Assembly: GCA_048213135.1 (NCBI GenBank)
Contig: PS015061.1
Coordinates: 178,628-242,627, forward strand
Direction: 5' to 3'
Source: Reclinomonas americana ATCC 50394
Taxonomy: Eukaryota
DNA length: 64,000 bases
Positions 1,088-53,084 of the stretch are shown here, piece by piece (within the stretch, counting starts at the first letter, position 1; each line of letters begins with the position of its first letter). Under the pieces are notes generated by a model that saw only the letters and a list, made by a program, of their open reading frames with translations, made no database searches and was not told the origin of the DNA. Position numbers and translations under genes: made by a program.

Positions 1088-3228
1088 ATGACATCCAACG
1101 CCACCACGTCATGCCTCTCCGTGGTGGAACGGAAACGCGACGGGCAGGAACTGACCGACGCCGAGATCGCCCACATGGTACACGCGTACACCCTCGGCGA
1201 CTGCAGCGACGCTCTCATGGCGGCCTTCCTCATGGCCAGCTACCTGCGCGGCCTCTCACGACGCGAGACACGCGCACTGACCGAAAGCATGCTGAAATCC
1301 GGCACACAACTCGACCTGCATCCCTCACTCCTCGCCTCCACGGCCGCCTTTCCGCATCGCACCTCGTGCGTGGTCGATAAGCACTCGACGGGTGGTGTGG
1401 GCGACAAGACATCGCTGCTCATTGCGCCCATCGTGGCGGCCTTGGGTTCGTCGTGCCTCGAAGAGTTGTCATCTCCACTGTAGTTGTTCTCTTACGCCTC
1501 CCAAAGGCGTGCCTGTGGCGATGCTATCGGGTCGCAGTCTCGGTCACACAGGTGGCACACTCGATAAGCTGGCCAGCATTCGCGGCTTCCGCGTCGATCT
1601 CTCATCGGAGGAGTTTTGCGAGTCAGTGGCGCAGTGCGGTGCGGTGATTGCCGGTGCCAGTGCCGACATTGCACCGGCCGATCGCAAGATCTACGCCCTC
1701 CGCAACGACACGGCCACCGTCAGCTGCATCCCGTTCATTGTGGCCTCCATTATGAGCAAGAAACTCGCGGCCGGCACCGATGCACTCGTTCTCGATGGTT
1801 CGTTATCGGTGGCCGGCTATTGATAGTCTTCCTCTCATCACTCCTTTTCCCATCTGCAGTCAAGTGCGGCCACGGTGCGCTGATCGAGGACGTAGAGGCG
1901 GCGCGTGATCTGGCCGAGCAGCTGGTGTCGGTGGCCGTCGACGGTGGTCGCCGGTGTGTGGCGCGTCTGACTCGCATGGACACGCCGCTCGGGCACGCCG
2001 TCGGCAACTTTGTGGAGATCATCGAGACGGTGCAGGCGTTGCAGAATCCACACACTGCCGACCCGACTCTCATTGACTTGTGTGTGGTGCTGGCGGCCGA
2101 CATGCTCCATTTGAGTGGTCGCGCCGCGTCGGTCGACGAGGGGTGCCAGCTGGCCAAGTGTGCGCTGCAAGACGGGTCGGCGTGGAGCAAGTTCCTCGAA
2201 ATGGTATTGTGGGGGCGAAGGAGGCTTTGTGTATGTGTATCTGGCATGTCCCTGAGCTTCTCCGTCCCCAGATCGCCTGCCAAGGCGGTGATACGTCCGT
2301 GGTCGACGTGCCCGGCGACGATCTCTTCGCCACGTGGCGTTCCGCAGCCGTTCCCGTGGCGGCGCCTGTTTCTGGTGTTGTTTCGCGGTGAGGCGTGGAG
2401 GAGATGGGCGGATAGGGGGAAGGGCGGAGAGGAGAGGGAGAAGGGCGGGGAGGGAGAGTGCGACATTGAGAATACTCGCAGCTCACTGCCTTGCATCAAG
2501 GAGAGATTACGGCAGCTACAGAGGAGTACAGCATCGGCCTTGCGCCACTTGCTGTTGTTGCAGCACATGGTTCTGTGATGAAGAGGCGGAGCTTGCGCCT
2601 TGATGGTCCCTCTCCTCTCTCTATCTCTCTCACCCACTCTCTTCTGCTCTTCTCTCTGTGCCTCTGTTCGCTCTCTTCTCCTCTCTTCCTTTCTCATATT
2701 TTCTCATGTGTTACTCCCTTCTCTCTCTCCCGCTGCGCTCTCTCTTCTTTCCCCTCCTCCTTCTGGGGTGTTCTTTTTTCTCTTGTTCTCTTTTTTCTAA
2801 TTCTGCTGTCGCTATCCTCTCTCCATCTCTTTCTTCCGTCTCTCTCCTCTTTTTTCATCTCTCCGTCTCCTTCCTTTTCGCTCTCTCTCTCTCTCCGATC
2901 CCTCTTGCCTCTCTGTCTCCCTTTCCTCCCTCTCTTCTCTCACCAAGGTGTTCCGCTGCCTCTTCCTTTTTCTCCTTCTGCTGTTCCTTTCTTCTCTTCA
3001 TATCTTGTTTCCTTTCTCCGTTCCTCTCTTTCTCTTCTCTCTGACCTCTCTCTCTCTCTCTCTGCCTCTTTGCCCTTTGTCTCCTGCTCTTCTCTGCCCT
3101 CTTAATATTCCTCTCTCTTCTCCTCCCTCTGCCCTCTGTCTCATTCTGTTCTCTCTCTCTCGAGGGTGTTCTTCTTTCTCTTCATCTTTTTTCCCCTCTG
3201 CTGTCCCTTCCTCTCTCTCCGTCCCTCT

Positions 3229-3265
<37 letters not shown>

Positions 3266-3398
3266 GCTCTTCCGCCACCCTGTCTCTTTTTCTCTTCTCT
3301 CCCCGGGGTGTTCCTCTTTCTCTTCATCTTTTTTCTCCCTCAGCTGTCTCGTCCCCTTTTCTCCTCTCTCTCCATCTCTTCTCTCCTTTCTTCCTCTG

Positions 3399-3432
<34 letters not shown>

Positions 3433-3951
3433 TCTCTTCTCTTTTTTCTCCGTCTGCTGTCACTTCCTCTCTCTCCATCTCTGCTCTCCTCTTTCTCTTC
3501 CTCTTTTTCTCCTTTGCTGTCACTTCCCCTCTCTGTCTTTTCGCTCCTTTTCTCCTTTCCCTCTCCTCCCTTTCCTCTCTCCTTTCCCCTTCTCCTCCCT
3601 CATCCTCTCCTCCCTCACCCTCTCTCTCTTTCTCCCTGCAGTGTGGACGCCCTGGCCATCGGTCGCCTCATTTCCGAGCTCGGCGCCGGCCGCGACGACC
3701 ACCACCACGAGCCCGACATGCAAGTGGGCCTGTGGTTCGTCAAGACCATTTGCGATCGCGTTGATGCCGGCGAGCCACTAGCGTGGCTTCGCGGAGCCAA
3801 GCACGCCACCGCCGACGCCATTGCTACCGCACAGGCGGCAGTCGCGGCCACCATCACCATCGCCGACGAGGGTGTAGAGGCAGCGCGTCACTCGGTTCTT
3901 CTAGACTTGTACACACCGGCCATTGGCTGGGCCTCACGGCAACCTGAATAG
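1088..3951 (+). CDS. TYMP: Thymidine / pyrimidine-nucleoside phosphorylase; exons 1088-1445, 1507-1797, 1860-2203, 2272-2387, 3642-3951
   Basis: Family motifs DKHSTGGVGDKTSL, MLSGRSLGHTGGTLDKL, APADRKIYALRNDTATV, SIMSKKLA, DVKCGHGA, PLGHAVGN, ELGAGR; four GT-AG introns restore a continuous frame. Confidence 0.93.
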
Positions 3952-4252
3952 TGGTAGTACATCACCGTAGACGCTTTTTGTTTCGCCAGGGAGTACTGCA
4001 GCTGCCAGCTGGGACCTCCGGAGCCTCTTTTCGCAGCTGTTCCTCTACGTAGTTTCTTGACTTGCAACGTCGGAAGCACTGCCTTGAGAGACACCGGACC
4101 GGCGGAACACCAGCGATCTTCTGCCACAGAGGGAGCACCAGCGCAGACTACGCCAAGTCTGCACCTTGCACAACACTTTCCCGCGCAGCCTGCAACGCGC
4201 TGCAGGCAGAGACGCGAAGTTCAGTCCGTCCTGTCACTCTCTCTCTCTTCCA

Positions 4253-5041
4253 ATGTCGGGAGATCGGATGAGGCCGATGCCAGCACCTCCGTCTGAGCTG
4301 GTCAGCGCCAAGGCACCCGCCTTTATCAAATGCGTGTTCACTTGCATCGATGGCGAAGGTTCTGTGTGTGCGTGTATGTGCTACTTGCTCTCTCCTCTCA
4401 CTCTTGTGCATTAGTCATGTCATCCACGAATCAGGTCGAGTCGACACTGCCGCACGCGCATCGACGTGCAGGTGTGTGTGTGAGAGAGTGTGTGTGTTGT
4501 GTGAGAATGCACGTTGCTAATGCACGTGATGCGCAGGGGAAAATCTGCCTGCGACTCCGCGGCCTCCAGGCATGAGCCGCACCAAGGCACTCACACTCTA
4601 CGTGCGAGAACGGTGTGTGTGTGTGTTGTGAGGCATCTCTCTGCTCTCTCTCCTCACACACCTCTCCTCATGAGTGATCAGTCTGATGATCGCTCTTTCT
4701 TCTTCACTCCCTCTCTCTCTCTCACGGTTTCACCCTCTGCCTCCTCTGCTCCGCCTCCTGTCGTTCCCTCTCTCGTCCTTGTCATCGACCTTCTCCTCTC
4801 TCCGCTCTCTCGCTCTCTTTCTCTCGCCCTCTCTCTCTCTTCTCCTCTCAACTCTGTTGCTTTCCGCCTTCTGCCTTCATCACGGTCTCACGGTCTCCCA
4901 CTGATTCGTATGTCGTTCCTCCGCTCGTTCTCCTCTCGCCCTCCTTGTCCTTATGATCTCACCAGGTTCTCTTTCTCTCACCTGAACTTCCGTCACTTCT
5001 CAAGTTCCCATGCTGTTGTGCCTTTCATCGCCTACATGCTC

Positions 5042-5098
<57 letters not shown>

Positions 5099-8000
5099 AT
5101 CTCTCTCCCTGTCTCTCCCGTCTCTCTCGCTGCCTCTGTGCTGAACTTCCCTCAGTTCTCAAGCTACCTTACTGCTGTTCCTTTCATTGTCCGTATTCTC
5201 CGCTGCCTCCTTCACTCTCTCCCCCTGCTCTCTCTCCCTCTCTCTCTCCCTCTCCCTCTCTCTCCCTCTCTCCCCTCTCTCTCCCTCCTCTTGCTCACCT
5301 TTCCCTCTTGACAGCGTCCGCCGCGCCTACCGCGCCGAGGGCGGCCCCGACTCATTCCTGGTGCGCTTCTGCAACTCGCTGCTCGGCTTCCACATGTCGG
5401 TGCGCCTCGAGCGCAGTTTGCGGCACTGCCACGACCTGCTGACGGCGTTCTCGCTGGGCGCCGGTCTCATCCTGTACGGTGCAGTTGCGTCGAAATGCAA
5501 TTTCTGCAGTTCGCTCCTCCGTCATCCCGCTGCGAGTCGCCTCATTGCATGTGTGCAGTACCTCACTGATTGGACGTATGGGCCGAACTTTGGCGAGGAC
5601 GGCTACGAGGTCATCAAGATCATTTCGCTCGTTCTCAACCTGGTCACGTGCTTCTTCATTTGTCGCTACTACAAGCTGCGCACGGACCGGCAAAAGTTTG
5701 TCGTCAAGTCGTCGACCTCCAGCATTCTCAAGTTTGAGTTCTGGCGCTCCTCGTACCCGATTCAAGTGAGTGTGCGACGCTCTGCTCCTCATCCATCTTC
5801 TTCGTTGATGCAAAGCTGCTGGTGTCGTATTTCTTGCTCTTCTCTTTCTTTATCGTCTCATCTTGTTGTTGATGTTGATGTCGTCCGTGTTCTTCTTACT
5901 CTCCGTTTCTCACGTTTCTCTTTCTCTTGAGGTCGATGCGTTGCTATTGCTGTTACTGCTGTTGTCCTTGTCCTACTTCTTCTCTTTGTCTTCTTCACGT
6001 CATTGATGTTGTCCTTCATCTTCTCCGTGTCTTCGATTGTCACTTTTTCTTCTTCTTCTTCTCCTTGCTGTTCTTATTGTGGTTGTTTGTTTACATCTTC
6101 TAGTTTTCTTCCTGTTGTTGCAGCTGTCATTATCCTGGATCTTCTTCTTCATCATCTCCTTTCTCACCCTCACCCTCCTCCTCCTCCCTCATCTTGTTGT
6201 GACTGAAGCTGTTCTCTCCCTTCTTGCCCTCCCTCTCCTATCTCTTCTCCTCCTCCTCTCCCCCCCCCCCCCCCCCTCCGTCGTGCCCCCGCTCACTGCT
6301 TGACCGCGACGCAGTTGTTGCTGGAAATCATCGCACACCTGGCGCAACCATTCCCGTTCCTATCGCGAGTGTGGTACGAGAATGACCAGCTGTCGATTTT
6401 CGTGTGCCTCCGACTGTACGTGATCTTGCGCTTCGTGCGCGACCACGCCGTCATCTTCCAGCGGCGCGAGCTGGTGCAGCAGGAGTTGGCTGAGTTGAGT
6501 TTTTGTGCAAGGAACTGCTTTCGACACTCGTCTCTGTTTTGGTTGTCGTCGCACCTCGCACTTTTTATGCCACCGTTGACTCGCCTTTCTTTCTCATTCA
6601 GCCTCTCATATTATCTCTGTGCGTTGCCATTGGCTGGACTCTCTTCTGTTATAATACGCATATGTCTGCTTTGTCAATCTGCCCTTCGCGTTCCTTCTCT
6701 CCTCTGTCTCTCTCTCTCCTTTTCGACACACATCGTGCTCTTCCTCATCGTATTCTCGCGCGCGCGCGCTCTCTCTCTCTCTCTCTCTGCATTGCTGTTG
6801 ACTCGCTTTCTCTCTTTCGTTCTCGACGTGTGTCTCTCTTGTCTCATGCTGCCTTCGTCCTCGTAATCCTGTCTCTTGTAATTTCAACACAGTTCCCTCT
6901 ATCTTCAATCTGGCTTTAGTATTCTCTCCGTGTGGCTGTCGCCTCATCTTTTTCTGTCATTCAGTTTTCTCAGTCTGTTTTATCTCGTTCTCTCTCTCTT
7001 CTTGTCTCGTCTCTCTCTCTCTGTCTCTCTCTTTCTCTCTTGTGTCGTCTCTCTCTCTCTCTCTTGCCTCGCCTCTCTCTCTCTCTTGTGTCGTCTCTCT
7101 CTCTCTCTCTCTTATGTCGTCTCTCTCTTGTGTCGTCTATCTCTCTCTTCTTGTCAGCACGTCTCTTTCTCGCTTCATATTCTGTTTTTTTGGCCTTACT
7201 CTTTTAATGTTTCCTCATTTTGTTGTTGACCCATCTCTCCCCTTCCCCCCGTTCCCCCCTTTCCACTTACCCCCTTTCCCCCCTTCTCCCTTCCCCCTTC
7301 ACCTTCTCCCCTTACCCTTCCCCCCCTTCCCCCTTGTTCCCGCCCTCCCGCAGACACAACATGTCCTACAAACTCGGCTGGCGCGCCGCCTTCAAAATGC
7401 TCTTCTACTACCGCACCACCACCATGTTTGTGATGGCCGCGGTGTTGACGATTCCCCTGCTCGCCTTTATGGTGTGGCAAGCGGAGCGCTTTGTCGAGGG
7501 TTCACTCTTCAACAACTACTTTAACTGCCTGTGGGTGAGTGAGTGAGTGAGTGGACGGCGTGATCTATATTTTCTTACTCGTAATTGCAGTTTGTGTACA
7601 TTACCATGGCAACGAGTTGCGTTCTCTTTGTCTGTGCGTGTGACCATTCTCTTTCGCGTCACCCACTCCACTCTACATCACAGTTGGCTACGGTGATTTC
7701 TACCCGGTGGGCGTGCAAGGCAAGCTGGTCGTAGTCAGCATCGGCATCTGGAGTGCGCTCATGCTCGTGCTGCTGGGTGCCTTGGTGACCAACAAGATCA
7801 AGCTGACGCGCCAGGAGATGTACGTCACTCAAGCCACAGACGCGTGATGCAGATGACAATCGACTCACTCTCACACACGCACAGTCTGGCCATGAAGGTA
7901 GCGTTCGAGGCACGTCGCAACCGCAATCGTGCGCACGCCGCTGCGCGAGTGATTCAGTATCCGTGGAGGTGAGTGTTGCGATTCCAGTTGCACAGTCGTG

Positions 8001-9323
8001 TTACCTTGCTCATCCCTGCGTGATAGACGCTACAAGGCCGGCGTGCTGCATGCGCGCAACTCGCAACGCGGACTCGTGTCTCGCGTGGCCAAGTTCCAGG
8101 AACTCAATGATGGGTGCGTGCTTGTATCTGTGTGCGCGGACTTTTTTAAGTCAACAGCTGCTCTCTTCCCTCTATCTCTCTGACACATCCGCACTCTCTT
8201 CTCTTTTCTCCTGTCTCTCCCTTTCTCTCGCTCACTCTTATTCCCTTCTGTCTCTCTGAGTCCCTCTCACACTCTCGTTCCTTTTTCTCCTAATCTCTCT
8301 CTTTCCTCCCTTCTCTCTCTCACTCTCATCTCTCTCTGTCTGTCTGTGACTCTCGGTCTCGTACCTTAGTCTCCCTAATTCTCTTTGTCATCTCCGTTCT
8401 CTTTCTCACTCACTCTCGTTCCATTCTCTCCCTCTCCCTTTCTCTCGCGCTCACTCTTTCCCCTCTCTTTCTCAGTTTCTATGTCTCTCTTTCTGTCTCT
8501 CACTCTCATTCCTTGATGTCGCTTTCCTGCTCTGCCTCCACTCTCTCGCATTCTTTTTTCTTTCTGTTTCCCTCATTCCTCTCTCTTCTCTTTCTCACTC
8601 ACTCTCGTTCCATTCTCTCCCTCTCCCTTTCTCTCGCGCTCCCCTCCCCGCTTTTAGCACTCACTATGATTGCCTCCGCCTGACTCACACTCTCTCTGTC
8701 TCTTTTCTCATTCGGTCACTCACACTTATTCTGCCTGTCTCGCTCTCCTCACATTCTTTCACCCTCTCTCTCTCTCTCACTCTCATTCTCGCCCTATTCT
8801 CTGTCTCTCTGTCTTTCTCTTACTTGCTCATTCTCATTCCCTCTCTCTCTCTCTGTCTCTCTCCCCCTCTCTCACTTCCTGATCCCTCTTTCACGTTCTC
8901 TCTCTTTCTCTCTCTCTTTTGCTCTTTCCGTCCTCTTCCCTCCCCTAACCCCCTTCCCTTTCCTTCCCCACACCCCCTTCCCTCCCCTCACCCTCCCCTC
9001 ACCCTCCCCTCCCCTCCCCTCCCCCTCTTTCTCCTCCCACCAGCCCCGTATCGGAGGCCAGTTACTCCAGCGCCGACCCGGTCATCATGAGCCAATTGAC
9101 GGAGCTGGACGAGTGGCGACGGGGCACGGAGGAGCGCATCAACCACATGTCACTGATGATGGATCAGCTGTTGCGACACTTGCGCGTGACGGTTCCGGAG
9201 AACACAGCCCCCCCACCCGCAGCGCCTGCCACTGCGGCGGCACAAGGCACTGGTTTGGATATTGGTCGAATGGCGTCGACACACGGAATGGGTATTAGGG
9301 TGGAGGGGCCAGGTGGTAACTGA
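4253..9323 (+). CDS. SK/KCNN-like potassium channel with C-terminal calmodulin-binding/IQ-like segment; about 12 exons
   Basis: Spliced pore NYFNCLWFVYITMATIGYGDFYP, S4-like FVCLRLYVILRFVRDH, LLEIIAHLAQPFP, post-S6 AHAAARVIQYPWRRYK and a terminal coiled coil. Confidence 0.85.
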
Positions 9324-10069: not shown

Positions 10070-11679
10070 TCATCGCCGCGCCGCACCGGCGGGTGGCGCA
10101 GGAGTTGCTTTCGCCCCCGCAGGCGGTGCAGGAGCTGCCTTCGCCCCCGCAGGCGGTGCCGCCGGCTTGCCAGCTATTGCCGGAGCTGCCGGTGCTCCAG
10201 GCACGGCCGCCACAACACCACTACCACCAGCGGCGGCAGCAGCAGCAGCTGCAGCTGCTGCAGCGGCAGCCTCCTCCTCCTCCTCATCCACATCGGCAAC
10301 CACATCCGGCACCGCCGTGTCCATGGTCAACGCAAACGCCACCGTCTTCAGCGGCGTCGCGGGACTCACCGTCTGCGGACCAAAGTCGCGCTGCACAAAC
10401 GTCACATTGCCGTCCTGGCGCATCACCATGATCGTGGTGGTGCGCGTGCCGTACTCGGGACTCCCGGAGACGTAAATCGGCGACAGAAAGCGTTCCCATT
10501 CCACACCCACACCCGTGTGCGGCAACTCACCGTCCGACGCCCGCGACTTGTCGGCCATCACCTCGAACAGATCGTTCAGTCGATCCTCCAGGTCCATGTC
10601 GTCGCCCGTCGACGATAGCAAACGATTCAACAAGGTCATGGCACGCCTACACACGAGGAAAGGTCAGTGGCCTTGCAATCACAACAAGAAAGAGAAGTAG
10701 GAGGGAGGGCGTGCCTTTCTTTCGGCCAGTTGCGATCGAGACCGATTCCGTTGCAGAGCGAATGCATGCCCGGCGTCACCTCCTTGTACTTGACCTTGCC
10801 GCGTTGCGCGCTGCAGAGAATCAAGACCTTATTCCAATCGCCGCAAATCAAGTTGAATCCCGGGTACTCCTTGAGGCGCTTGGAGACGCGCGACAGGTAC
10901 CGTCGCGGCGGCAACACCGACGTCAGATAATTCGCCACCAGCTTCCCGCGACTCTTTTTCTTGGTCGCCTTGGCGCTCTTGGCGGTGGTGGCCACCGACA
11001 CCACACTCTCATCGCAGCTGCCCATGGGCGCCACCGAGTTCTCCACCGACGCCGCTCCATCATCGCCCACGCCCGATCCCTCGCCTCCAAACTCATCCTC
11101 ATCGCTCATTCCCGACGACGATGGCGGTGGTGGTGGTGGAGGCGGCTGCGGAGCAGCTGCTGCTGCTGACTTCATCACTGGCGACTGCATCGATGATGGA
11201 GAGAACACCTCGTCGGAGGCAGAGGGCGGTGGCGGAGGCTGCGTGAGCTTCGACGCCGCCATATCCTGATCCGATCGTATGTTGGTGAGCACAGCGAATC
11301 GCGCGGTCATTGTCACGCTGTTGCTATAAAAGTGAGCGACGGAGGGCGAGAGAAGGAGAGTGCAACGCGAAGAGCGAACCCGATCCATGTGCCGCCTCCG
11401 TCCTGCGCAAAGGAGAGGAATGAGCGCAGATGTTGACACATAGAAGCCTCTGCCTTTCAACGCAACGAGATCGCGAGGTGCGAGGACATCAGGTGCGCCA
11501 TCGCCGGTCCAGAAGCGCGCAAGGGAAGTCGGGCGATCGAACCTGTGAGAAGAGAAACAAATGAGGGCAGTTGTCTTGTTGCTTTTGTTGTGTAAGTGGC
11601 ACCTCTCATCGCGATTGTTGAGCAGGATGAGGCGATAGCGCGGGTGTGAGGGGTCCCAGAAGAACACAGTGAGGCACAT
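10070..11679 (-). CDS. TANGO2: TANGO2 / NRDE-family protein with low-complexity insert and Ala/Pro-rich tail; 5 exons
   Basis: N-terminal MCL, LLNNRDERFDRPT, RDLDGGGTWIG, FAVLTN, SRGKLVANYL, YPGFNLICGD, LSPIYV, YGTRTTT. Confidence 0.92.
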
Positions 11680-11762
11680 GCGCGTTGAGAAGAAGAGGAG
11701 AGAGCGAGCACAACAACAACTGTCACTCATTCATTTTGCCGCGCGCTCTCTGTGTGACGACC

Positions 11763-13002
11763 ATGTTGCGCTTTCCTGTGAGAGAGAGAGAGAGAGAGTG
11801 AGAGAGAGTGTGTGTGAGAGGGAGAGGAAGAGAGAGCGAGTGAGCAAGCGTGTGTGTGATCGTGTGTGTGTGCGTCTGCCTGTCTCCCACTCTCTCTCTC
11901 TCACACACACACACTCTCTCTCTCCTGTCTCTCTCTCTCTCTCTGTCTCTCTTTCTCACACTGTGTGTGCAGGGCAAATCGTCTGTTTGAGGCGGTGGAG
12001 GCGCGCGATTTCGACGAGACTGTGCGACTGGTGGAGAGTGGTGCTGAGGACATCAACGCACAGAATGCGCAGGGGAATACGGTGTTGCACTTGGCGGCAA
12101 TGTCGTTGCGTTGTTGTTATCAAGTATCTCTCTCCGATCCTCTCTCTCCTTAGCAGTGAGGGAAGCAGAAGGGGGAGGGAGGGAAGAGTTGGAGAGACTG
12201 CGAGAGATCCATTGTGTCTCGTGCTCTCTATCTATCGCAGTCTCTCGTCCTTCTTTCTGGCGGTGTCTCGGTCTGTCGGTCTTTATCTCTTGCAGTCTCG
12301 TCGTCACGATGCCTCTATCTCTCCTTGATCGATCACTGTGTCTGCGGTCTCTGTTTCTCTCACCTCTTTCTCTCGTCACTCTCTTGTCACCCTTTCTCTC
12401 TCTTCTCTCTGTTTCGCTCTCTCTATCGCTTATGTACTCTCTGTCTCACTCGCTCATTCTCCAGTCTTTCGCTGTTTTCCTTGCGTCTTTCTCTCTCTCT
12501 CTCTCTCTCAGTGCTCCTTTCCTCTTTTCCACCTCTCTGTCTCTTCGCCTGCTGTCGTTTCCTCCTCGGTTCACTGGCACTGTTCACGCTTTTTCGGGCT
12601 CGCAGTCTGTTGACTCTGCCTCTCCATCCCTTCTCTGTGTCCCTTCTCCTGCTTTCGGTCTCCTGTTCTCTCTCACCTGTTCCATCACTTCTCTCTCCTT
12701 TCCCTTCCTCACTCTCTCTCTCTCTCTCATCTCCCCCCTTCGCCTTCATAGTAAGGACGAGAAAATGTGCTGCTTCCTCGTGGAACACGATGCCGACATG
12801 AGCGTAGAGAATCGCGACGGCAAGTCACCGGTGGCGTGCGCACCAGCCCGTTTGCGTGGAATGATGAAGGGTGCGGCGAGGATGCGCGATGCTTGTGATG
12901 AACGTAGCCTGACTCTGTGTTTGTGTAGCCACCAAGGAGATCAAGGAGCTGTATCGGCGACTGGAGAAGCGCTTCCAGCAGAACTCGGAGAACGCCTCAT
13001 GA
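11763..13002 (+). CDS. Small ankyrin-repeat protein; exons 11763-11764, 11973-12104, 12752-12870, 12929-13002
   Basis: ANRLFEAVEARDFDETVRLVESGAEDINAQNAQGNTVLHLAA...CFLVEHDADMSVENRDGKSP matches the ankyrin consensus; start codon reconstructed as AT|G across intron 1. Confidence 0.85.
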
Positions 13003-13556: not shown

Positions 13557-16500
13557 TCAATCTCGATCGTCTGCGTCGTCGTCACGCATGTATCTGTCGT
13601 CATCTTTAGCGCCACCTACACTGCCCCCACGACCACTTCGTCCACCGTGGCCGACTCCTCTGCCACGGTTTCCACCTCGACCTCGGCCTCGGTTAGCGAC
13701 GCACGCTTGCTCAGCGCCGACAACGCCATCACCACCGGCACCACGACCGCCACCACGTTCGTGACCGAGTCCAACGTCAGCGTGTGTATCATCGACATGT
13801 GCACTGCGTCCACCGCCACGGCCGACACGACCACCAACATCCTCACGGCCACCACGACCACCGAAATCCCCACGGCCACCACGACCACCGAAATCTCCAC
13901 CACCGCCACGACCACCGACATCTCCACGGCCACCACGACCACCGAAATCTTCACGGCCGCCACGACCACCGAATTCTCCATGGCCACCACGACCACCGAA
14001 GTCTCCACGGCCTCCACCTCCACGTTGGCCTCGGCCGGCTCCGCGTTCGGAAATGTGTCCGTCATCCACATGTTTTTGTTCGTCTTGTGTGCCACGTCCA
14101 CCGCCACGACCATGATGAGCATCGCCACGTCCGCGTCCAGATCCTACATCGGTATCGCGAGTGCGATCTTGTACACGTGGGCTGCGACTTTGCTTGCGTG
14201 CTGTGAACAACACAAAGACAAATATGCGTTGAGAACAGAGCGCTGCACATCTCACAACTTTGCGAGCTGACAGTATGTGCACGCAGCAGTTTGGAACCAC
14301 AGGTTCATCAGCGGCAGCACTAGGGACCGGCCGCGGAGGCCAATGGCCATCAATGAAGTCCTCCGCCATGTTGCACGCATGGGTGAGAGCCTCGAGGTGA
14401 AGCACTTCGTAGTCTAGAGAGCACACCAGCAACCCCATTCAGAACACACACAACATCGCTCCGCAGCAGTTGAACGAGCACGTGTAACAGAACGTTGGTG
14501 TGGTCCGTCATTAGGACCCGTATAGTTGATAACCGGCATGACAAATCCCTGTGCATATGAGAATGATGGCCGCAGTACGGGTCAGCGAAGCAGCGCACCA
14601 CGGAATTCTACCGCATGTGATTGCTGTACCTTATCAATGCCAGTCGCAGTCGAAAATTCTTCCACCGCGGCAAGCACCTTGTCGCTCTCTGCTGCAACGA
14701 GAGTAGCCTGAGACCCTGCCAAGCGTTCGTCAAGCTTGTCAATCTTTGTCAGCAGCACCACCGGCGTGATTTCTGCAGGTTCGTAGAAGTTAGTGCACAT
14801 CGACGCAACAACACAAAGACATCATTGCTGACCGTAATTGTCTCGCATAATCCGATTAAAGTCGCGCACGAGTTCCAGTTGCTCCGTGTTGGACGCAGTT
14901 TGGCTGTCCACAATGAACATGACACCGTGGACGCGCCTGTCTTCGTTGGGGCGACGTTGGGCGATGGGCGGGAGCGGATTGGTGAGAATGTATCCGTCCG
15001 GAAGACACCCGTTCATGAGGCACTCCAGCTTGTCCCTGTAGTTGGCACCATCTCGCTCCCAGCCGGGGACGTCAATCAGTCGAATGCCAGGGAACGAAGA
15101 GTCGTAGTGTTGAACTTTCTTGGTCTGAGTTCTGTCAGGATCGTTTCCAGTAATAGCCAAGCCTCGGTAGTGCCCGGTGGTGATCGATGCGATCGTGTTG
15201 ATCGTACTTGACTTTCCCCACCCCTGTGCGAATGGCACAGCCGCAAATAAGACCAGTGGCGCGTCTAGTAACACTTAGCCGAGGCAAATGTTCGGTTTTT
15301 TTGCGTACCATGTATCCAAACAATAGAAGGTTGATTGTCTCCACGCTGCTTCCGCGTCGCAGTCGCCGTTCCTGGAGACCACGGAGTCGCTGAATGTATT
15401 CTCGATGGAATGTCGGAACCTGTTCAAGTGGAACACGTGGAGCTATATATAACACATTGACAAAGAATGAGTATCGAAGTGACTTGATATGCAATGACAC
15501 ACGGAGATGATTACCGTCCAGCGTGTTCACAGTCTGTGTGGCCCATTCGGTGCGGAAGCCGTCGGCGAATGCCGCACATACACGGAAGGTGAAGGCATGT
15601 GAAGGCGGAAGGTCCTCCTTTTCGTATTCAGCGAATTCCGGCGTCGAAACAGTGCCGAACGAGCCATCTTTCTTGAGATGCTGCACAATATAGTTTCGAA
15701 CACGGCCGGTCGCTGAATCCGACATCTCGAAGTGCAGACACAAGGAACAGCAGGTGCGGTAGTCGACCAGAATACTCGGCGGGTCAGCTGACCGAATAAC
15801 CACACGACGGAACAGCTCTACACAATGCAGTCGTCAGAACTGGCGAAAAAAAGCACCATCTCAAAAAAACTGCATGTTTGCAGAGCACACACACCGTCCA
15901 AGTTCTCGAACGAGTCCACGAAAAAGGCGTACTCGGGAGCCAAGTTCTGTATCTCAGCAACTGCAGATGCGCTGTTCCGAACAGCTGGACCAACACCCAG
16001 GCACACGACAGTGATGCCGTCCCGAAGCAGTGCGACCGCCTGTTCGCGAGTATGCGCGGGATTGGAGGATTCACCGTCGGTGAAGATGATCAAGCACTTG
16101 CGTGCACCCGGCTTACCAGCGCCCAACATCTGTGCGATTCAGGGAATGCGCGGTGAGTTACAGCCAGTTGCAACTCAACAATACGGCTGCATCCCATCTC
16201 ACCTGTGTTGCTCTCTGTAACGCCAAACCAGTCATGGTGCTTGCACCATTTGCCAACCGGTGCAAGTGCATTCCTTCATCATTAACCACAACGTAAGACG
16301 AAGTGTTACACATGCCAAAGAATCCGCTGCACACTCACTCACCAGTGACAGCTTCAAATAGAGAGGCCTGGTTGCTTGAAAGCGGTCGGAGAGTGTTAAC
16401 CGTTGTCCCGAACAACAGGATTCCCATGTTGACAGCATTCCGTTCAAATGCAAGCCGGAGGCGCTGTACCAGCGCTCGGAGGCATTGTTGCATGACAGCA

Positions 16501-18211
16501 AACTGCCTCTCGGTGATTGAGCCGGAGCTGTCGACGCACTGTGACATATGCACAACATCGTTTAGTACCGAGAACTACATGTACAGCACGACGCAACGCA
16601 AACAGAAGCAAACACACCGCGACTAGATCCCAACCACTGCTGCTATCGGCGTTTGCAGCAACTTCTTGAATAATGCGTGAAAACCGCGCTTGCTCTGCCG
16701 ATAGTGCACCAGTGGCATCCGAGCTGACTCGAAACACCTGATAATCGGGGATGTAATCGAAAGTCGCACGTTTCGGGCGGCTTGGTGCGGCACGTGCTGT
16801 TGACGACGAGCCGACGCCGTCACTCTCAGCGCTGACCTTCAACGGAACAGTCCTCACCTGGAAAAAACGTAGCGCGAAAAAATGTCAAATTCAGTGGAGA
16901 GAATGCGAGTGTAATCGGACTGCACATACTGTGACAGGTCGGCCGAAAATCATGACGGTCTGACTGCAGATGATAATACCGCGAGGAAAATGTGGATGCA
17001 TTGTATCAGCAAGAGTAGCACAAAAGTTAACATAAGGTATGAAAAGCTTACCCCCATGCCGCGCTCATCACGTCCTTCTCATCCGCGGTCTCGAAATTGA
17101 CAAAACTGCAACGAGACATCGAGATGAGCAGCAGGACTTCAGCGTGAATGTTGCAGGCAACAAAAATCAATATTCTCCCTCCCACTTACCAGTAGACGCC
17201 CTGTCCTGGCTACATACGGGCACAAAAAATCAATGTCAGTGGCGATATCAGATGTTGTGGATCAGCAGGTCTGCGGAAGACGAGATGTCTGTCATACCTT
17301 TCGAATGGGTGTGACTGCTGCCGGCGTGACACCCTCTCGTCTGCACAGCCTTAGAATCTCCCGTTCAATGGCCGAATTCTCACGCTCCGCCGAGAAGTAG
17401 CCAAGGTGCAACGACAGTGGGTTGACACGGGGTGCGTGCGGTGCGGGGTTCCGCGCTCGAGTGCCAGCAGAAGGGCCAGCACCAGCAGCGGAGCTACCTC
17501 CAACTGATCCGCCAGCCCCGAGTCCACTGTATCCACTGACCACGGGGGGAACACGGTGGTTCTTCAGCTTTTCCTGGTGGCCACGTGGTGAGCACAACAA
17601 ATACACGCATGCAGAGGAACACGTTTTGTATTACCTTGGACAGCGCGTCAGATCGAAATGATTGCACCTGCAAGTGGATAGTTGGTCAACGCACGCTCTC
17701 AAGTGTGCAGAAACTGCACAATGACGTACGTTGAGTGGTGTACCGCTGAGAGTGAACGGAGTGCTGCAATGCGAGCAATCGTTGAGTATCGGCAGAAAGC
17801 AGACAAGAAATAATACGCCATATATTGATGTACCGTCGATGCGCTTCAACCACGGCTGCTGCATCTTGCGGTGATGTGAACGTGACAAAGCTGCGTGGTG
17901 GGGTGCAAAAAGTAAAGTCAGAGTTCATATACAGAGTCATGCCTACTCGACCACAACTACGCACCAGAATCGACGTCCTTGTTTCTGCGCAGTGCAGTGC
18001 AAGCATTCAGATCCAAAGTGAGACACCAACCATGATGTGCAACACTCACCTCGTTGACGCTCACGATGATACTTGCTCGCTGGCCACCACGCACGTGCGG
18101 TTGGAACGCCCGCCGCAGTCCGTCTTCGACATCAGCGTCACTCAGGTCTCTCGGAACTTGCGCAACATATAGCTTGCAGGTTTCATCGCCAGCATCGGCA
18201 GCGGACGCCAT
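13557..18211 (-). CDS. Multidomain protein: RRM, RRM, VWA, FN3, IFI44-like P-loop GTPase, RGG-repeat tail; about 19 exons
   Basis: RRM1 KLYVAQVP/RRFCFVTF; RRM2 SLHLGYF/GVYCFVNF; VWA DLVACVDSSGS...LIIFTDGES...VVCLGVG; FN3 DLPPSHAFTFRVCA; G-motifs LLLFGYMGWGKSSTIN, LIDVPG, LLTKID; IFI44-type VHGVMFIVD, VMPVINY, AEDFID; exons join in frame through GT-AG introns. Confidence 0.8.
13820..14010 (-). repeat. Coding 27-nt tandem repeat (about 7 units) encoding GGRGGRGDF-type RGG boxes
   Basis: Plus-strand unit ccacggccaccacgaccaccgaaatct repeated with substitutions. Confidence 0.9.
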
Positions 18212-18780
18212 CTCTCCTCGTCGCGGTGAGGGACAACAAAAACGGAGGCATCCAATTGGACAACGAGACACCTGGCAATAGCCGCGTCCCCCACTACGTC
18301 CCTCCTATTGTCCCCCAGCGTGCTTCTCACAGTCACCGAAAGGGCGGGACACACACAGACAGTTGCAAGTTGTCAGATTTCGAGATGAGTGGTCAGCGCA
18401 GACGGAATCGACAAGGAAATCAATCTCAGAAGGGCAAAAAGGCACGTTGATGCCTTGCGCTCTGCGTGTGCAGGCGGGTGACGCCTAAACCGTTGCGCTG
18501 TGACATATTCACTTCGATTAGCAGAAATCAAGGCAATTGCAAGAAGATAACCACACGCACGGGTCAGCATCAGCAGTAACTGTTCTGTATAGTTGCGCGC
18601 TGCGACACAGCACAAGAGAATTGCTGCTGACAACGATGTTGCTTTGTTTCCTTGTCGTCGGTGCGATGGTGTGCTTGTTTGTGTGCTTGTATGTGTGCGT
18701 GTGAAAAACGTGTGTGCATGTATGTGTGCGTGTGAAAACGTGTGTGCGTGTGTATATGTGTGTGAATGTGCGGTGTGCGG

Positions 18781-18824
<44 letters not shown>

Positions 18825-18842
18825 CGGATCCAGGAGCAAGAC

Positions 18843-20522
18843 ATGGGAGGGGGCTCGCAGTCTTCCAAATCCGAAGAACCTTGTGAACAGGGAAGCGTGG
18901 AGCCCTCAACGCCACCATCTGTGGTGCGCTTGCCTGTTGTTCTCTGGCAATCATGCAATCTCTGACACTTCAGCGCGTGTGTGATCGCTGTGCACAGGAC
19001 GACGATGTCAGTCACCACACTTCGACAAGTGCGAGTGCATCACCACAACCCTCAGTTCCAGCTTTCGCAGCTCAAGACAGCCCTCGAGCCGACTCCGAGT
19101 CGAATGACGGGGAAGCGGACGTAGAGGGCGGCGACGCTGCCGCGCGCACCGCAAGCCAGCTGCAGCGGGCGTCAGATCTAGATGCAGAGGATCCGCTGCT
19201 GGCCATGGATCAGAGCGCACAGAGTCCGGATCCAGCACATTCTGATTCACCGGAGCAATCCTCAGCTGACCTTGCCGGTGCACAAGTAGCGCAGCCACAG
19301 TCACTCCAAGTTGCGAACACCTTTCGCGAGCATGCATGCGCACAGCGCAGCGCTTGGCCATATGCATATGCATTGGGCTCTATTAACGATGACTGCAGGG
19401 CGATCATGGTGCCGTTGGCCGTTTGTCAATCGAAAAAGTGCTGCTTCTCGTTGAATGTCAACAACGACAGCTCGAGGATCTCATGCCCGAGTTCGAGGCT
19501 GTGAGAGAGGAAAACAAGCGGTTGGCCAGCGCGTTCAATGAGCTGCAGGGCGACCATGAAAGACTACTCGCAGTACACGAGGGTCTCAAGTATCACGTTG
19601 CCGCATTAGAGCGACGATTCGAGGAGCAGCAGCGTCGACTTGAGGAGCAGCAGCTTCGACTCGAGGAGCAGCAGCTTCGAGAGTCTCGAGACGTGTACTC
19701 TTCTCCTCTTCCGTCTTATTATTACGGGGACGGGTCGAAGCCCTTGACGGTGCGTGCTTTGATTGTATGATGCAGGAAGTCTCAGCCACGGCCGACACAT
19801 TGTATTAATTTGTTGCTTGCAGATATCGGGAACGGTAGGCCATGATGGACTGTCGACCGTAGCGCTGTGCTGCAGGGCAGATACGCTGGTGAGTAGTCGC
19901 ATCGCATCGTGCTCTATGCAAAGCTGAATTGATATATATGCGAAATCTCGGGAACAGAAATTTGCTGCCACGCGTGACTTGCACAGCAAACTGAGTCGCT
20001 ATGCTGGTGGGCATCTGCGATTTGTACATGTAGAGCCCGGGAAGACTGCAAACATCGGCTCCAGGTGCCTTCATGTTGTTTGCATTCGCTGGGACACGCG
20101 GTGGACTCCTGTGGACGTACTGAGTCACGTGGAACACTCGACGGGTGTACAAGTGTCCGACACTCATTTATCAGGTACGTATACTTGCAGTGTGATTCCG
20201 AACGAGACTACCAAGCTGCTAACTGACTCTCTCGCTGTGGTGAGCAGAGCCAGGGAGCGCTGCGGCATCAGCGAAGAGCGCAAGAGGACCCGGGCCCGGA
20301 CGCTGGCCGTCGAACATCGCGATCTGTGTGTGCCATACGCAGACGGCCCGTGTCAACGTCAAACAAGTGGTGGAGATGTTGCAAAACGAGGCACGAGTCC
20401 CGACGGATCGCATATTTGTGCTCATGTTCAAGGATGATTTGACCAATCGCCGTCAAGTGGTGGAGGAGGGCGAAATACGAGGATTGGCTGAATTTTGCAG
20501 TCGCGCGTTGGCCGCGGAGTGA
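18843..20522 (+). CDS. Hypothetical protein: disordered N-terminus, coiled coil, C-terminal alpha/beta domain; about 6 exons
   Basis: Exons splice in frame from MGGGSQSSK through [19 protein letters not shown]...[20 protein letters not shown] to IAICVCH...IFVLMFKDD...LAAE-stop. Confidence 0.65.
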
Positions 20523-23827: not shown

Positions 23828-26800
23828 CACACAGAGGAGGAAGTTGTTGCAGATGCAGGAGGTAAAGAGACGAACGACATGGATGACGATAGGAACGGAG
23901 GGACACGAGATAGAGAGGGACAAGTAGAAACAGGAGGCGAGTGACAAGGGCAGTGACGATAGGAACGGAGGGACACGAGATAGAGAGGGACAAGTAGAAA
24001 CAGGAGAATCAAAGAGGCGAGCGACGACGGCAGCGACGATAGGAACGGAGGGACACGAGATGGAGAGGGACAAGTAGAAACAGGAGAATCAAAGAGGCGA
24101 GCGACGACGGCAGCGACGATAGGAACGGAGGGACACGAGATGAAGAGGGACAAGTACACATAGGAGGAAGTTGCAGATGCAAAACTGAAGTAACGAGGAG
24201 AGCGACGAGGGCAGTGGCGAAAAGAAAGGAGGGACACGAGAGAGTTAGAAAGCAATCGTGCGAGACAATCTTCCTAAGCTTCGCCTCACTAAACTCTGCC
24301 TCGTCGTCGCAACCAATCACCTCTTACCCGCTTTCTTTCTCTCTTTCTCATGTCAAGCTGCACGTTGTGCACTCCTACACGCAACAATAGTCGCCAACTT
24401 CTTCATACTCCTGCATTATCGTCTACTTTCCCTCTTTCTTACTCTCCTGTCCATTTATCCTCCTTCTTCTGGCACCCTCTCGCTTTCCATTCTCCTGGCC
24501 TCTCTTCCTCACTTTCTTCATTTCCCTTTTCTGTACGCACCCTCTCGCTTCACTCTCTTCTGTGCCCCCACCGATTTCTACCTCCCTCCTTCACACCCAC
24601 ATGTCTCCCAACTCTTTCCTGCTATTCATCCTCCTCCTTTGCTCTTCTTCTCTTACCCCCTTCCCCTCTCTTCTCCTCCCCTTCCCCTCCCCTCTCTTCT
24701 CCCCTCTCCCCCTCCCCCTCCATTCCCTTCCTCTCCTTCCCCTTCCCCTTCTCCCCCTTCCCCTCTTCTCCCCCTTCCCGTTCCACTTACATGCTTGTCA
24801 ATGGTGAACACGCTCACTGGATAGTTGGAGGTCATGGACAGAAAGCGATACACATCGCTAAACGCCAACCGCACGTGCTCGTCACCCGGACGCACCGTGG
24901 CCCGCACGCACTCCACGCACGACAGGTAGACATCGACGGGCACCTCCCCCGCGGCCGCGCGACGCACATTGAGGGCCTTGAGTACGCCGGAGAACACCGC
25001 GCGACTCTGCTCCGGCAGACTCATGCCACTCCACAACAACTCGCCCTCCGCATCGGGCCGATCGTACAGGATCTCGTCAAACTTGTACGGCAGACCCATG
25101 TGCTCGTCTACCGCCGCCTTCCACTTGCCAACCACCTCGCGCACGGCCTCCTCCATGGCGTTGCCGGGCGGCGGCACGGTCGACAGTGGGATGCACGGGT
25201 AGCCGCGGTCGGTGTTGGGCACCACCCGCCCGTCGGCACGCACCACCAGCTCGAGCACGCCGAGGTACTCGGTGTCGGCATCGCATTGCACAATCGTCAC
25301 TCCGTTGGCGCGCTTGGCGTACTTGTGGTGCGTGTGGCTGGCCAGAATCACGTCGACGGCACCGTGCGGAAGCATGTTGGCCAGTCCGACGTCCTCCGGC
25401 GAGCCTCCGTGGTACACCACAATCACCACGTCGCAGTCGTGCGGGTGCGAGCGCATGCGACGAGCCGTGGCCTCGACCACCGCCGCCTGCTCTTGCAGGT
25501 TGCGCCTAGATTGGCAGTCAGTGGGCGGAAGAGGAGAAGGGAGCGAGAGAGAGAGAGAGGAGGGCGCGAGATGACAACGAACCGCAATGACTGCTCGTCG
25601 AAACCGACAAAGCGCAGACCGGCGCGCGACGAGTACGACAACTCAAGCGCATCGGGTCCCATCAACGCCGTGACGCCAACCCGCAACGCCCGCCCATCTG
25701 CACCACTCGGCATCTCCTTGACGATGAATGGGCGAATGGACACCGTTGGTTCCTCCGCCGCCGCCGCAGCTGCACTGGTCACACGCGGCTCGTCCACCCA
25801 GAATTCGTGATGCAGCTCGGCCCACGCGTCCGTCGGAACAATGTTGGCACACAGCAGCGTCACATCGAGCTTCAGATCGCGCGCCTTGCGCAGCATACGC
25901 AACAGCCCCGCCGTTCCTGCAATCCTATGAGCGAGAGCAGACGACGTAATCGGAAATTCTCCGTCACTCACCGGCGTCGAACTCGTGGTTGCCGAGCGAC
26001 AGCGCATCGTACGCCATCATGTGCGCGAACTCGAACTCAGGAGCACTGCAATGCACAGCGTCAGTACTCCACCAGCAAGCTTGACAAGGGCGACAACGCA
26101 ACAATCGCGTGACAGGCGACGGTCCCAGCACATCAAACAACCTGCATGCATCAATGAGAATCTCACCAAGAGAGAGAAAGAGAGAGACTAGGACACCACG
26201 CAACGAGCCACTGAAGAAGTCGCCAGCGTCAAGCAACATGGTCTGCAGTGAGAGACACATGTACACAGTGAGCAGAATGAGGAGACAACTCGAGCTCATT
26301 GCTCCTTCCTGCTCCTCCCCCTCGCTCTTCTTCTTCATCTTCTTCTTCTTCTTCTTCTTCTCATGAGAGACAGTGAGCAAGAGTGAGGAAACAACTCGAG
26401 CTCATAGCTCTTGCTCATGCTCCTCCTGCTCCTTCTTCTTCTTCTCAAGAGAGACAGTGAGCAAGAGTGAGGAGACAATCCTCCTCTTCTTCTTCTTCCT
26501 CTCATGCGAGACAGTGAACAAGAGTGAGGAAACAACTCGAGCTCATTGCTCCTTCCTGCCCCTCCTCCTCGTCCTCCTGCTCATGCGCCTCCTTCTCCTC
26601 CTCCTCGCTCTCTCTCTTCTTCTCTCTCTTCTTCTTCTTCTTCTACTTCTTCTCATGAGAGACAGTGAGCAGACAATTCGAGCACACTGCTCCTCCTCCT
26701 CCTCCTCCTTCTGCTCCTCCTGCTCCTTCTCCTCCTCCTCCTCCTCCTTCTGCTCCTCCTCCTCCTCACCGGCTCATCATGCTCCAGCTTCTGATCGCGC

Positions 26801-43596: not shown

Positions 43597-43634
<38 letters not shown>

Positions 43635-44182
43635 AGAGGAAGGAAGGAACGAAAGAAACGGAAAACGGAACGGACCGACGACNNNNNNNNNNNNNNNNNN
43701 NNNNNNNNNNNNNNNNNNNNNNNNNNNNNNNNNNNNNNNNNNNNNNNNNNNNNNNNNNNNNNNNNNNNNNNNNNNNNNNNNNNNNNNNNNNNNNNNNNNN
43801 NNNNNNNNNNNNNNNNNNNNNNNNNNNNNNNNNNNNNNNNNNNNNNNNNNNNNNNNNNNNNNNNNNNNNNNNNNNNNNNNNNNNNNNNNNNNNNNNNNNN
43901 NNNNNNNNNNNNNNNNNNNNNNNNNNNGACTCACTCATGCGCTTCGCCACCTTTCCCTCCCCTTCCCTCCCCTTCCCTCCCTTTCCCTCCCCTTCCCTCC
44001 CCTTTATCCACTCACCCTGGCCGAGATCACCGGCAACACATACGACACCGCGACAAACACATCACCGCCGTCCTTGGCGAACTTGGTCACCGCAAAGCCC
44101 ACTCCCGTGTCAGAGTCACCCCGTCGCCCGTACACCAGCGGCGGGCTGCTGTCCGGATAGAACCTGCACAAACAAGTGACGA

Positions 44183-52414: not shown

Positions 52415-52450
<36 letters not shown>

Positions 52451-53040: not shown

Positions 53041-53084
<44 letters not shown>

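Follow-up and report, generated by a model that had tools for sequence, protein, structure and literature searches.

A protist gene that joins RRM-type modules to a VWA-FN3-IFI44-like G-domain core, a candidate RNA-tethered nucleotide switch or scaffold

Introduction

IFI44 and IFI44L are common interferon-signature markers with an obscure molecular mechanism. One study describes both human proteins as carrying G1-G4 motifs, with the motif definitions used here, and as lowering the polymerase activity of respiratory syncytial virus (RSV) in a minigenome system (bioRxiv 10.1101/2020.02.24.963900).

Here we analyse a gene with a G domain of this type in a 64,000-nucleotide stretch of DNA from Reclinomonas americana ATCC 50394 (assembly GCA_048213135.1, contig PS015061.1, positions 178,628 to 242,627 of the forward strand), called the window below; positions are those of the window. 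As read from the genome, the gene encodes an intact fusion of at least one RRM, an RRM-like repeat, a VWA domain with a metal-ion-dependent adhesion site (MIDAS), an FN3 domain and an IFI44-like G domain. It differs from IFI44 and IFI44L in having no TLDc domain: no exon matched TLD in Pfam, and VWA and FN3 occupy that position instead. N-terminal RRMs are added and, possibly, a C-terminal RGG tail. We consider it fairly probable that the locus is one intact gene with the order RRM1, linker, RRM2-like repeat, VWA, FN3, G domain and probably RGG tail, and that its product of about 890-1104 residues acts as an RNA-tethered nucleotide switch or scaffold. On this reading the protein is cytosolic.

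Nineteen exons in one frame

The coding region was assembled on the minus strand by joining the following exons by their coordinates.

18211-13557, minus strand: whole coding region, 19 exons in one frame, all 18 introns GT-AG
18211-18050, 17984-17965, 17890-17834, 17763-17730, 17667-17635, minus strand: exons 1-5
17573-17298, 17209-17190, 17105-17052, 16963-16930, 16857-16618, minus strand: exons 6-10
16538-16343, 16273-16203, 16129-15895, 15817-15515, minus strand: exons 11-14
15442-15309, 15223-14833, 14772-14630, 14548-14494 (or -14518), 14413-13557, minus strand: exons 15-19

The start ATG is at 18211-18209 and the stop TGA at 13559-13557. Joining the 19 exons gives an open frame of 3315 nt, or 1104 codons, with neither a frameshift nor a stop across the 18 joins. 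Seventeen introns measure 60-88 nt, and the last one 80 or 104 nt, depending on whether the donor is 14493 or 14517. A first-pass annotation made from the sequence had joined about 19 exons into one frame; this is borne out here with exact coordinates and 18 GT-AG introns. The GC content of the gene region is 53-55%, in eukaryotic DNA with short introns. An in-frame stop lies close upstream of the ATG (open reading frame (ORF) 17957-18304). Position 18211 is a reasonable start, and an additional upstream exon is conceivable.

The connection between the RNA-binding part and the rest of the protein lies in exon 10. Its 240 uninterrupted nucleotides run from the last strand of the RRM2-like repeat (VRTVPLKV) to the first strand of the VWA domain (WDLVA), with no Met and no stop, and the following in-frame Met sits beyond the DxSxS motif. 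Because exon 10 has no Met, a separate VWA-FN3-G gene would miss either its start or its MIDAS. Because exon 10 spans both, the RRM and VWA parts are read as one physical coding unit. The fusion is as secure as genomic sequence by itself allows. Domains were tested on single exons, and the spliced protein was examined by local search with hidden Markov models (HMM) and by alignment.

The IFI44-like G domain

The G domain extends over five exons.

14346..15442, minus strand: IFI44-like G domain, exon 15 to the start of exon 19

The G1 motif GYMGWGKS is split by intron 15. It is followed by G3 (DVPGW), NGCLPDGY, G4 (TKID) and PVINY, and the C-terminal helix of the domain ends in AEDFIDG. In a MAFFT alignment with the relatives described below, G1 (LLLFGYMGWGKSS), G3 (RLIDVPGW), NGCLPDGY, RVHGVMFIVD, G4 (LLTKIDKL), PVINY and AEDFIDG all match up.

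Exon 16 (130 aa) has a single Pfam match, to the generic MMR_HSR1 family (E 2e-5, above the cut-off). Searched by sequence against the PDB, it gave chance matches to unrelated proteins (best E 0.45), and a word-indexed protein search returned nothing. Exhaustive searching of 1.84 billion representatives with phmmer yielded 20 matches at E <= 1e-3. Two of these reach E <= 1e-10, and no identity exceeds 37%. A word-indexed search with an alignment profile retrieved only a member of that alignment, P0004. The Pfam scan covered 15 of the 20 phmmer matches, P0008 and P0016-P0019 being left out. Three of the scanned proteins carry a VWA and a G domain (P0003, P0004 and P0013, with fn3 also in P0004), two a TLDc and a G domain (P0007 and P0020), and eight a G domain with no other clear domain. 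No housekeeping GTPase is found among these 15. By Pfam, P0021/P0004 consists of VWA, fn3 and MMR_HSR1, and P0013 and P0003 of VWA and G domain. Two bacterial Ig-repeat proteins, P0002 and P0005 (Big_7), matched in 5-6 short stretches each, were taken as repeat-summed chance matches and excluded from alignments and tree; P0008 also matched in 6 stretches. A search of the ESM Atlas with P0021 gave no usable match.

The names borne by the G-domain matches agree with the IFI44-type P-loop domain of the first-pass annotation, since those that are named are either IFI44-like or uncharacterised bivalve G proteins. P0007 is 'interferon-induced protein 44-like' of Mya arenaria (NCBI) and P0009 is IFI44-like by its UniRef name, both by automatic annotation; P0006 and P0010 are G-domain proteins of bivalves, listed as uncharacterised. 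P0007 has an E-value of 8.7e-6 library-wide and of 3e-12 against the window. In tblastn searches of the window with seven relatives, each matches 15274-14585 alone (E 3.5e-15 to 1.6e-11), so that the gene is present within the 64 kb as a single copy, with no tandem paralogues.

In a maximum-likelihood analysis of 14 G domains, the tree (unrooted, no outgroup) contains a branch with 95/95 support that sets the window protein, P0014 and five VWA/FN3-type rows apart from seven TLDc/bivalve rows. The gene is IFI44-like in its G domain only and is not a canonical IFI44.

For the fold comparison, we used a predicted structure of the relative P0021, in which FN3 and G domain are modelled confidently and the VWA domain poorly. 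The top Foldseek match of the G domain is septin 3. VIA-align ranks YsxC/EngB (Z 16.4, root-mean-square deviation (rmsd) 2.8, 172 aligned) and Toc34 (Z 15.0, rmsd 3.8, 201 aligned) above septin 3 (Z 14.2), and septins and EF-Tu are part of a long list near Z 14. Identity to the solved TRAFAC structures is 12-20%. The first-pass annotation had considered that the P-loop domain might cluster with housekeeping GTPases. By sequence it does not, and the fold comparison is uninformative on this point.

VWA and FN3 domains

Two further domains lie between the RNA-binding modules and the G domain.

15895..16629, minus strand: VWA domain with complete MIDAS, end of exon 10 to exon 13 (DLVA/CVDSSGS, GASTMTG, FTDGES)
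15515..15817, minus strand: FN3 domain, exon 14

The VWA assignment, including the intact MIDAS that had been noticed at first sight, holds on both profile and motif evidence. Pfam VWA (PF00092, cut-off 23.8) matches exon 11 (E 2.5e-8, 34.8 bits) and exon 13 (E 5.7e-9, 36.9 bits), and the MIDAS set is entirely in place, with DSSGS, the Thr in GASTMTG and the Asp in FTDGES. Among solved structures, exon 13 finds the two VWA domains of PTMP1, a thread protein of mussels (E 6.3e-13), with IIFTDGESS aligned to ILMTDGKSN. The window VWA aligns with those of the relatives P0021 and P0013. Exon 11 searched by sequence against the PDB gave nothing at E <= 0.01.

For the FN3 domain, sequence profile and predicted fold diverge. 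The fn3 profile (PF00041) reaches E 0.0018 and 18.9 bits on exon 14, under the curated cut-off of 25. However, an AlphaFold2 model of exon 14, built on an alignment of five relatives, shows a seven-strand beta-sandwich with a predicted local distance difference test (pLDDT) score of 86. The PDB matches listed for it are nearly all FN3 domains (best 6pol_E, E 4.9e-6), and superposition on the FN3 of EphA2 (8t9b_K) gives template-modelling (TM) scores of 0.77/0.85 with an rmsd of 2.1. The FN3 call of the first-pass annotation thus stands on the fold and falls short on the profile. At the level of the predicted fold, exon 14 is confirmed as FN3 on the window's own sequence.

RNA-binding modules

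Two RRM-type modules were traced in the N-terminal part, separated by a Gly/Ser/Ala-rich linker.

17635..18211, minus strand: RRM1, exons 1-5, aa 1-102 (RNP2-like KLYVAQV, RNP1-like RRFCFVTF)
16834..17423, minus strand: RRM2-like repeat, end of exon 6 to start of exon 10 (LHLGYF, GVYCFVNF)

RRMs are marked by the RNP1 and RNP2 consensus motifs. In RRM1, a phase-2 intron after a 20-nt microexon splits the Cys codon of RNP1, and both modules are split over microexons. Pfam on the single exons of this part found a weak RRM-like match, PNMA_N at E 0.082. We therefore ran on the spliced protein an RRM HMM derived from 38 bacterial segments whose PF00076 matches span the whole domain model. Residues 30-77 of RRM1 match positions 13-59 of its 70 (7.7 bits, E 2e-4, Z=1). 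RRFCFVTF falls on the RNP1 positions of the HMM, and KLYVAQV...RRFCFVTF lines up with the bacterial LYVGNL...RGFGFVEM with the correct spacing between RNP2 and RNP1. Searches with exon 1 agree in part. Six of seven weak matches in the PDB are RRMs of SRSF1 or PUF60 (E 0.06-0.8), in the RNP2 region; the top match is a trypsin inhibitor (E 0.023). The closest named Atlas clusters for this exon are RRM_1 (scores 0.83-0.86), which we take as a lead only.

The second module carries degenerate motifs (LHLGYF...GVYCFVNF). Its local alignment with RRM1 has a score of 41 (z 3.8), matched by 10 of 2000 shuffles. Both modules have a common, unusual exon pattern with identical phases, of 20/57/34 nt in RRM1 and 20/54/34 nt in RRM2, in which the 20-nt microexon stops within the Cys codon of RNP1. 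We read RRM1 as a probable true RRM and RRM2 as its probable degenerate duplicate. Of the two RRMs proposed initially, the first is supported by the independent HMM and the second is marginal by both alignment and profile.

Splicing of the 3' end and the RGG tail

Downstream of the G domain, the reading of the gene depends on splice choice. The features concerned and the products of the possible pairings are the following.

14414..14517, minus strand: last confident intron; donor 14517 or 14493 uncertain, weak acceptor 14414, other phase-1 GTs possible
14145..14345, minus strand: linker with an intron-like stretch; donors 14271 (gtcagc) and 14255 (gtgagatg), acceptors 14201 and 14182
Pairing 14255 to 14201: 55-nt intron, 890 aa, RGG lost
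Pairing 14271 to 14201: 71-nt intron, 912 aa with an out-of-frame end, RGG lost
Pairing 14271 to 14182: 90-nt intron, 1074 aa, RGG in frame
Unspliced linker: no intron, 1104 aa, RGG in frame
13560..14144, minus strand: RGG tail, of glycine/arginine-rich (GAR) type, 195 residues, 39% Gly, 17% Arg, acidic end
13816..14017, minus strand: 27-nt tandem array, 7.5 copies, Tandem Repeats Finder (TRF) score 285, 86% matches; encodes (D/E)(F/V)GGRGGRG

Splice sites were scored with a matrix built from the 17 confident introns. The last intron scores poorly (donors <= 0.9, acceptor 0.8). With donor 14493, the spacing from NY to AEDF is 25 residues, compared with 24-26 in the relatives. Reading through exon 18 in a different frame (TNVLLHVLVQLLRS) gives a helix-like sequence; this requires a frameshift, and the conserved AEDF helix was preferred. 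Within the linker, acceptor 14201 scores 10.2, among the top three of the gene's own acceptors, and 14182 scores 4.9. We also considered excision of the TAG at 14146-14144 with a 33-nt intron, and rejected such an intron as far under any intron length of the gene. Runs of N at 43600-43930 and 52400-52900, flanked by CT/GA microsatellites, mark the assembly as a draft, and single-base errors near the RGG linker are possible.

The first-pass annotation had noted RGG repeats and had warned that splicing could change their link to the gene. Both statements agree with what we find: the tail has 12 RGG and 25 RG in its 195 residues, the pairings with 14201 drop it, and the unspliced linker and the 14271-14182 pairing keep it. 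We judge it somewhat more probable than not that at least one isoform of the protein includes the tail. The RGG frame is open from 14438 to 13557, and sequence beyond its stop is AT-richer. Differences of the repeats from their consensus fall at the three codon positions of this frame as 6/6/14. GGG codons are avoided in the tail, likewise in the upstream exons. Because the first Met of the frame occurs only within its last 12 residues, the tail cannot be a separate gene.

A protein that ends before the tail is a serious contender, if not the one that we would choose. Splicing from 14255 (or 14258) to 14201 would give 889-890 residues that end in ...SARKVHASKVAAHVYKIALAIPM followed by a stop, and the Gly/Arg-coding repeat would then be 3' untranslated region or belong to an intron-retention isoform. 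The high score of acceptor 14201 speaks for this, as does donor 14255, whose intronic 8-mer gtgagatg is the same as that of intron 12. Moreover, the translation of 14255-14201 is an intron-like pyrimidine-rich peptide, codon log-odds neither favour nor disfavour the RGG frame, and five of the six frames are open across the repeat, hence the open frame is weak evidence. On the other hand, a 55-nt intron would be shorter than all 17 confident ones, and the exon side of donor 14255 is atypical, with a total of 2.4 compared with 5.8-9.9 for the training donors. The 90-nt alternative 14271-14182 keeps the frame. The enrichment of repeat differences at third positions (14/26), the coincidence of the frame end with the turn to AT-richer composition and the missing Met before the last 12 residues also argue for translation of the tail.

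Possible functions

RRM and RGG modules bind RNA, and intracellular VWA/MIDAS domains mediate protein contacts. In the reading that we prefer, an RNA-tethered switch or scaffold, the RRMs, together with the RGG tail if translated, would hold the protein on single-stranded RNA or on a ribonucleoprotein (RNP). The G domain, with G1, G3 and G4 intact, would bind GTP and would probably pair or oligomerise through its nucleotide face like septin- or Toc-type TRAFAC GTPases. The MIDAS of the VWA domain could capture an acidic residue of a partner protein, and the GTP state would gate the assembly of the RNP complex. The complex might survey foreign or aberrant RNA, or take part in ordinary RNP metabolism.

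Several points weigh against this reading. The gene model is known from genomic sequence alone. RRM2 is missed by the independent bacterial RRM HMM, and its match at the RNP1 register (E 0.074) was obtained with a seed that includes RRM1 and is hence partly circular. The predicted G fold is generically TRAFAC, with no specific family signal at fold level. At the 3' end, splicing to 14201, which scores highest of the local acceptors, stops the frame short of the RGG with either donor. Codon log-odds do not favour the RGG frame (-5.1, +2.5, +6.2 bits) and stand at +23, +59 and +32 bits for a Val/Ala-rich frame, in a comparison confounded by the Gly/Arg composition; this Val/Ala-rich frame can be reached from strong splice sites for only 18 codons before a stop. 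Finally, deletion of the G1 region of human IFI44 did not do away with antiviral restriction according to the study cited above (10.1101/2020.02.24.963900), which calls the predicted GTP-binding site dispensable for this effect, so that even the named relatives may not depend centrally on a GTP switch.

A housekeeping role is conceivable, if rather unlikely. The protein would then be an RNP factor of nucleolin, G3BP or hnRNP kind, working in ribosome or messenger RNP (mRNP) biogenesis or in stress granules, with GTP-gated assembly by the VWA-FN3-G part and no immune role. Its RRM plus Gly/Arg-rich architecture fits this, as do the ordinary gene neighbourhood, the single copy in the window and the nearness of the P0021 G fold to the ribosome-biogenesis GTPase YsxC/EngB (Z 16.4). 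However, the G sequence retrieves IFI44-like and VWA-G proteins, 20 matches in all, and not Era, EngA or EngB. Proteins of the latter type are very abundant in sequence libraries. Wide conservation would also be expected of a housekeeping factor, yet nothing above 37% identity was found in the 1.84 billion representatives.

We hold it to be unlikely that the protein is a sensor-effector dedicated to viruses or foreign RNA and, as such, a protist equivalent of the interferon-stimulated IFI44 proteins of animals. RRMs and RGG tail would then recognise viral or aberrant RNA, while GTP-dependent oligomerisation of the G domain and recruitment by the VWA domain would restrict replication. IFI44-like proteins are the only named relatives of the G domain. 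Variable flanking modules are common in conflict proteins, and the flanks of the core vary here, P0021 and P0013 beginning at the VWA domain and their C-terminal extensions being different. In addition, an IFI44 homologue is upregulated in cnidarian antiviral cell programmes, according to a recent preprint (bioRxiv 10.1101/2025.01.24.634691). Against this stand the single copy in the window, with no tandem paralogues, and the ordinary neighbour genes, which form no defence cluster. Moreover, RRMs and RGG tails typify RNA-binding proteins with housekeeping roles. One article also reports that human IFI44 negatively regulates antiviral responses (PMC6712396). The 'virus or RNA-granule sensor' proposed in the first-pass annotation is plausible, as a suggestion drawn from domain content only.

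The fusion of a G-domain relative to RNA-binding modules leads to the hypothesis that the IFI44 family acts on RNA or RNPs. Taken to its full extent, as a Rosetta-stone fusion, the argument would make IFI44-type GTPases RNA- or RNP-directed and the window protein a GTP-gated sensor of foreign or aberrant RNA, part of an ancestral antiviral module older than animals and interferon-independent. Effector assembly would be nucleated via the MIDAS and G-domain oligomerisation, and the splice choice 14255/14271-14201/14182 would toggle the RGG tail. All these elements together form a proposal that we regard as decidedly improbable. The finding as a whole concerns one gene in one genome, which makes it a lead rather than a result.

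Lastly, it is very improbable that the locus is split into an RRM gene and a VWA-FN3-GTPase gene, or that it is untranscribed or decaying: P0021 and P0013, with complete N-termini, do begin at the VWA domain and have no RRMs, but exon 10 passes from the end of RRM2 into the VWA domain with no stop, Met or splice site and the next Met lies past DxSxS, the 18 joins contain no stops or frameshifts, and all G and MIDAS motifs are intact.

Neighbouring genes

According to Pfam, the neighbours of the gene in the window encode proteins with Glycos_transf_3 (nucleoside phosphorylase type), TANGO2, GST, CYFIP/FragX_IP and Kelch-repeat signatures. No Rfam match was found in the window. The following regions were noted.

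1296-2578, plus strand: two overlapping ORFs in different frames that jointly cover Glycos_transf_3 (thymidine/pyrimidine-nucleoside phosphorylase type)
2000-9300 and 12050-12800, plus-strand reading: kilobases of CT/TC-rich low complexity that translate as SLSLSL..., with GC skew about -0.27 and AT skew to -0.54
10639-11730, minus strand: TANGO2 (PF05742, E 6.6e-27), with a long poly-Ala/Pro insert
18560-18900: CA/TG microsatellite (HTHTHT or CVCVCV) between the start of the fusion gene and an opposite coiled-coil-like ORF at 19393-19770
about 49000-56200, plus strand: multi-exon gene of CYFIP/Sra1 type, for example 52035-52403 (PF05994 FragX_IP, E 2.5e-24), with an N gap at about 52400-52900
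60233-61808, plus strand: Kelch-repeat ORFs (Kelch_4, KLHDC2-type; E 1.5e-11 and 3.1e-5)

The first piece of the Glycos_transf_3 gene is 56-68% identical to proteins of 13 Acidobacteriota genomes, far closer than the window's other genes are to anything. This gene may be a bacterial transfer that was later broken by an intron or a frameshift. The only named relative found for the CYFIP exon is from the oomycete Phytophthora cinnamomi (35% identity). The interval 18560-18900 may be a shared divergent promoter region, and the Kelch-repeat ORFs are probably exons of one gene. ORF 24656-25642 was considered as a 5'-nucleotidase and dropped, as it has no Pfam support.

Comparison with known systems

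The G domain has in common with IFI44, IFI44L and the invertebrate IFI44-like proteins the G1 motif GxxxxGKS, the G3 motif DxxG followed by a bulky hydrophobic residue and the G4 motif TKxD, which falls under the definition (N/T)KxD. A motif of NGxxP(D/E)GY type, the NY motif and the terminal A(E/D)D(F/Y) helix are also common to the IFI44-like proteins. The comparison covered invertebrate IFI44-like proteins, and the tree splits the window protein from the TLDc/bivalve set with 95/95 support. As the host is apparently not an animal, interferon control is not applicable.

With Toc34/Toc33, septins and YsxC/EngB, the G domain of the relative P0021 shares the fold class, at 12-20% identity and with many ties near Z 14.

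Ro60/TROVE also combines an intracellular VWA/MIDAS with RNA binding. Unlike it, the window protein has a G domain and no TROVE HEAT ring, and no homology was detected beyond the VWA domain. Proteins with RRMs and RGG repeats, of nucleolin, G3BP, hnRNP A/B or FUS type, are alike in their tandem RRMs and Gly/Arg-rich region of FGGRGG type. They are not known to have a VWA, FN3 or G domain, and in the window protein the RGG link is only putative. By analogy, tandem RRMs with a Gly/Arg region suggest RNA binding and possibly condensate formation.

A full-text literature search, judged from listings and abstract openings and with supplementary files not covered, found no published description of an IFI44-type G domain in protists, or of one linked to VWA or RRM.

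The closest relatives are the VWA-FN3-IFI44-like GTPases P0021/P0004, P0013 and P0003, with the fragments P0012 and P0011. They have the same core order at 23-36% identity; the RRMs and the RGG tail are absent from all of these. The first-pass annotation did not recognise the architecture from any described protein. This is true of the RRM pair and perhaps of the RGG tail, which were not seen elsewhere, but not of the VWA-G core (with FN3 where it can be called), which recurs in P0021/P0004, P0013 and P0003. Residues 600-669 of P0021 are modelled as a beta-alpha-beta-beta-alpha-beta module (pLDDT about 75), apparently beta-grasp-like, with no Pfam match, and the C-terminal extension of P0013 differs from that of P0021. 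A PB1 end for P0021 and a SAM end for P0013 were considered and found no Pfam support at E <= 1. The VWA-FN3-G family seems to swap its terminal modules.

The gene thus appears to belong to a little-known protist family with a VWA-FN3-G core, whose G domain is related to that of animal TLDc-G proteins, and the RNA-binding modules appear to have been gained at the window locus. The locus adds to the evidence that the IFI44-type G domain is older than animals and that, in protists, it forms part of a modular VWA-FN3-G scaffold.

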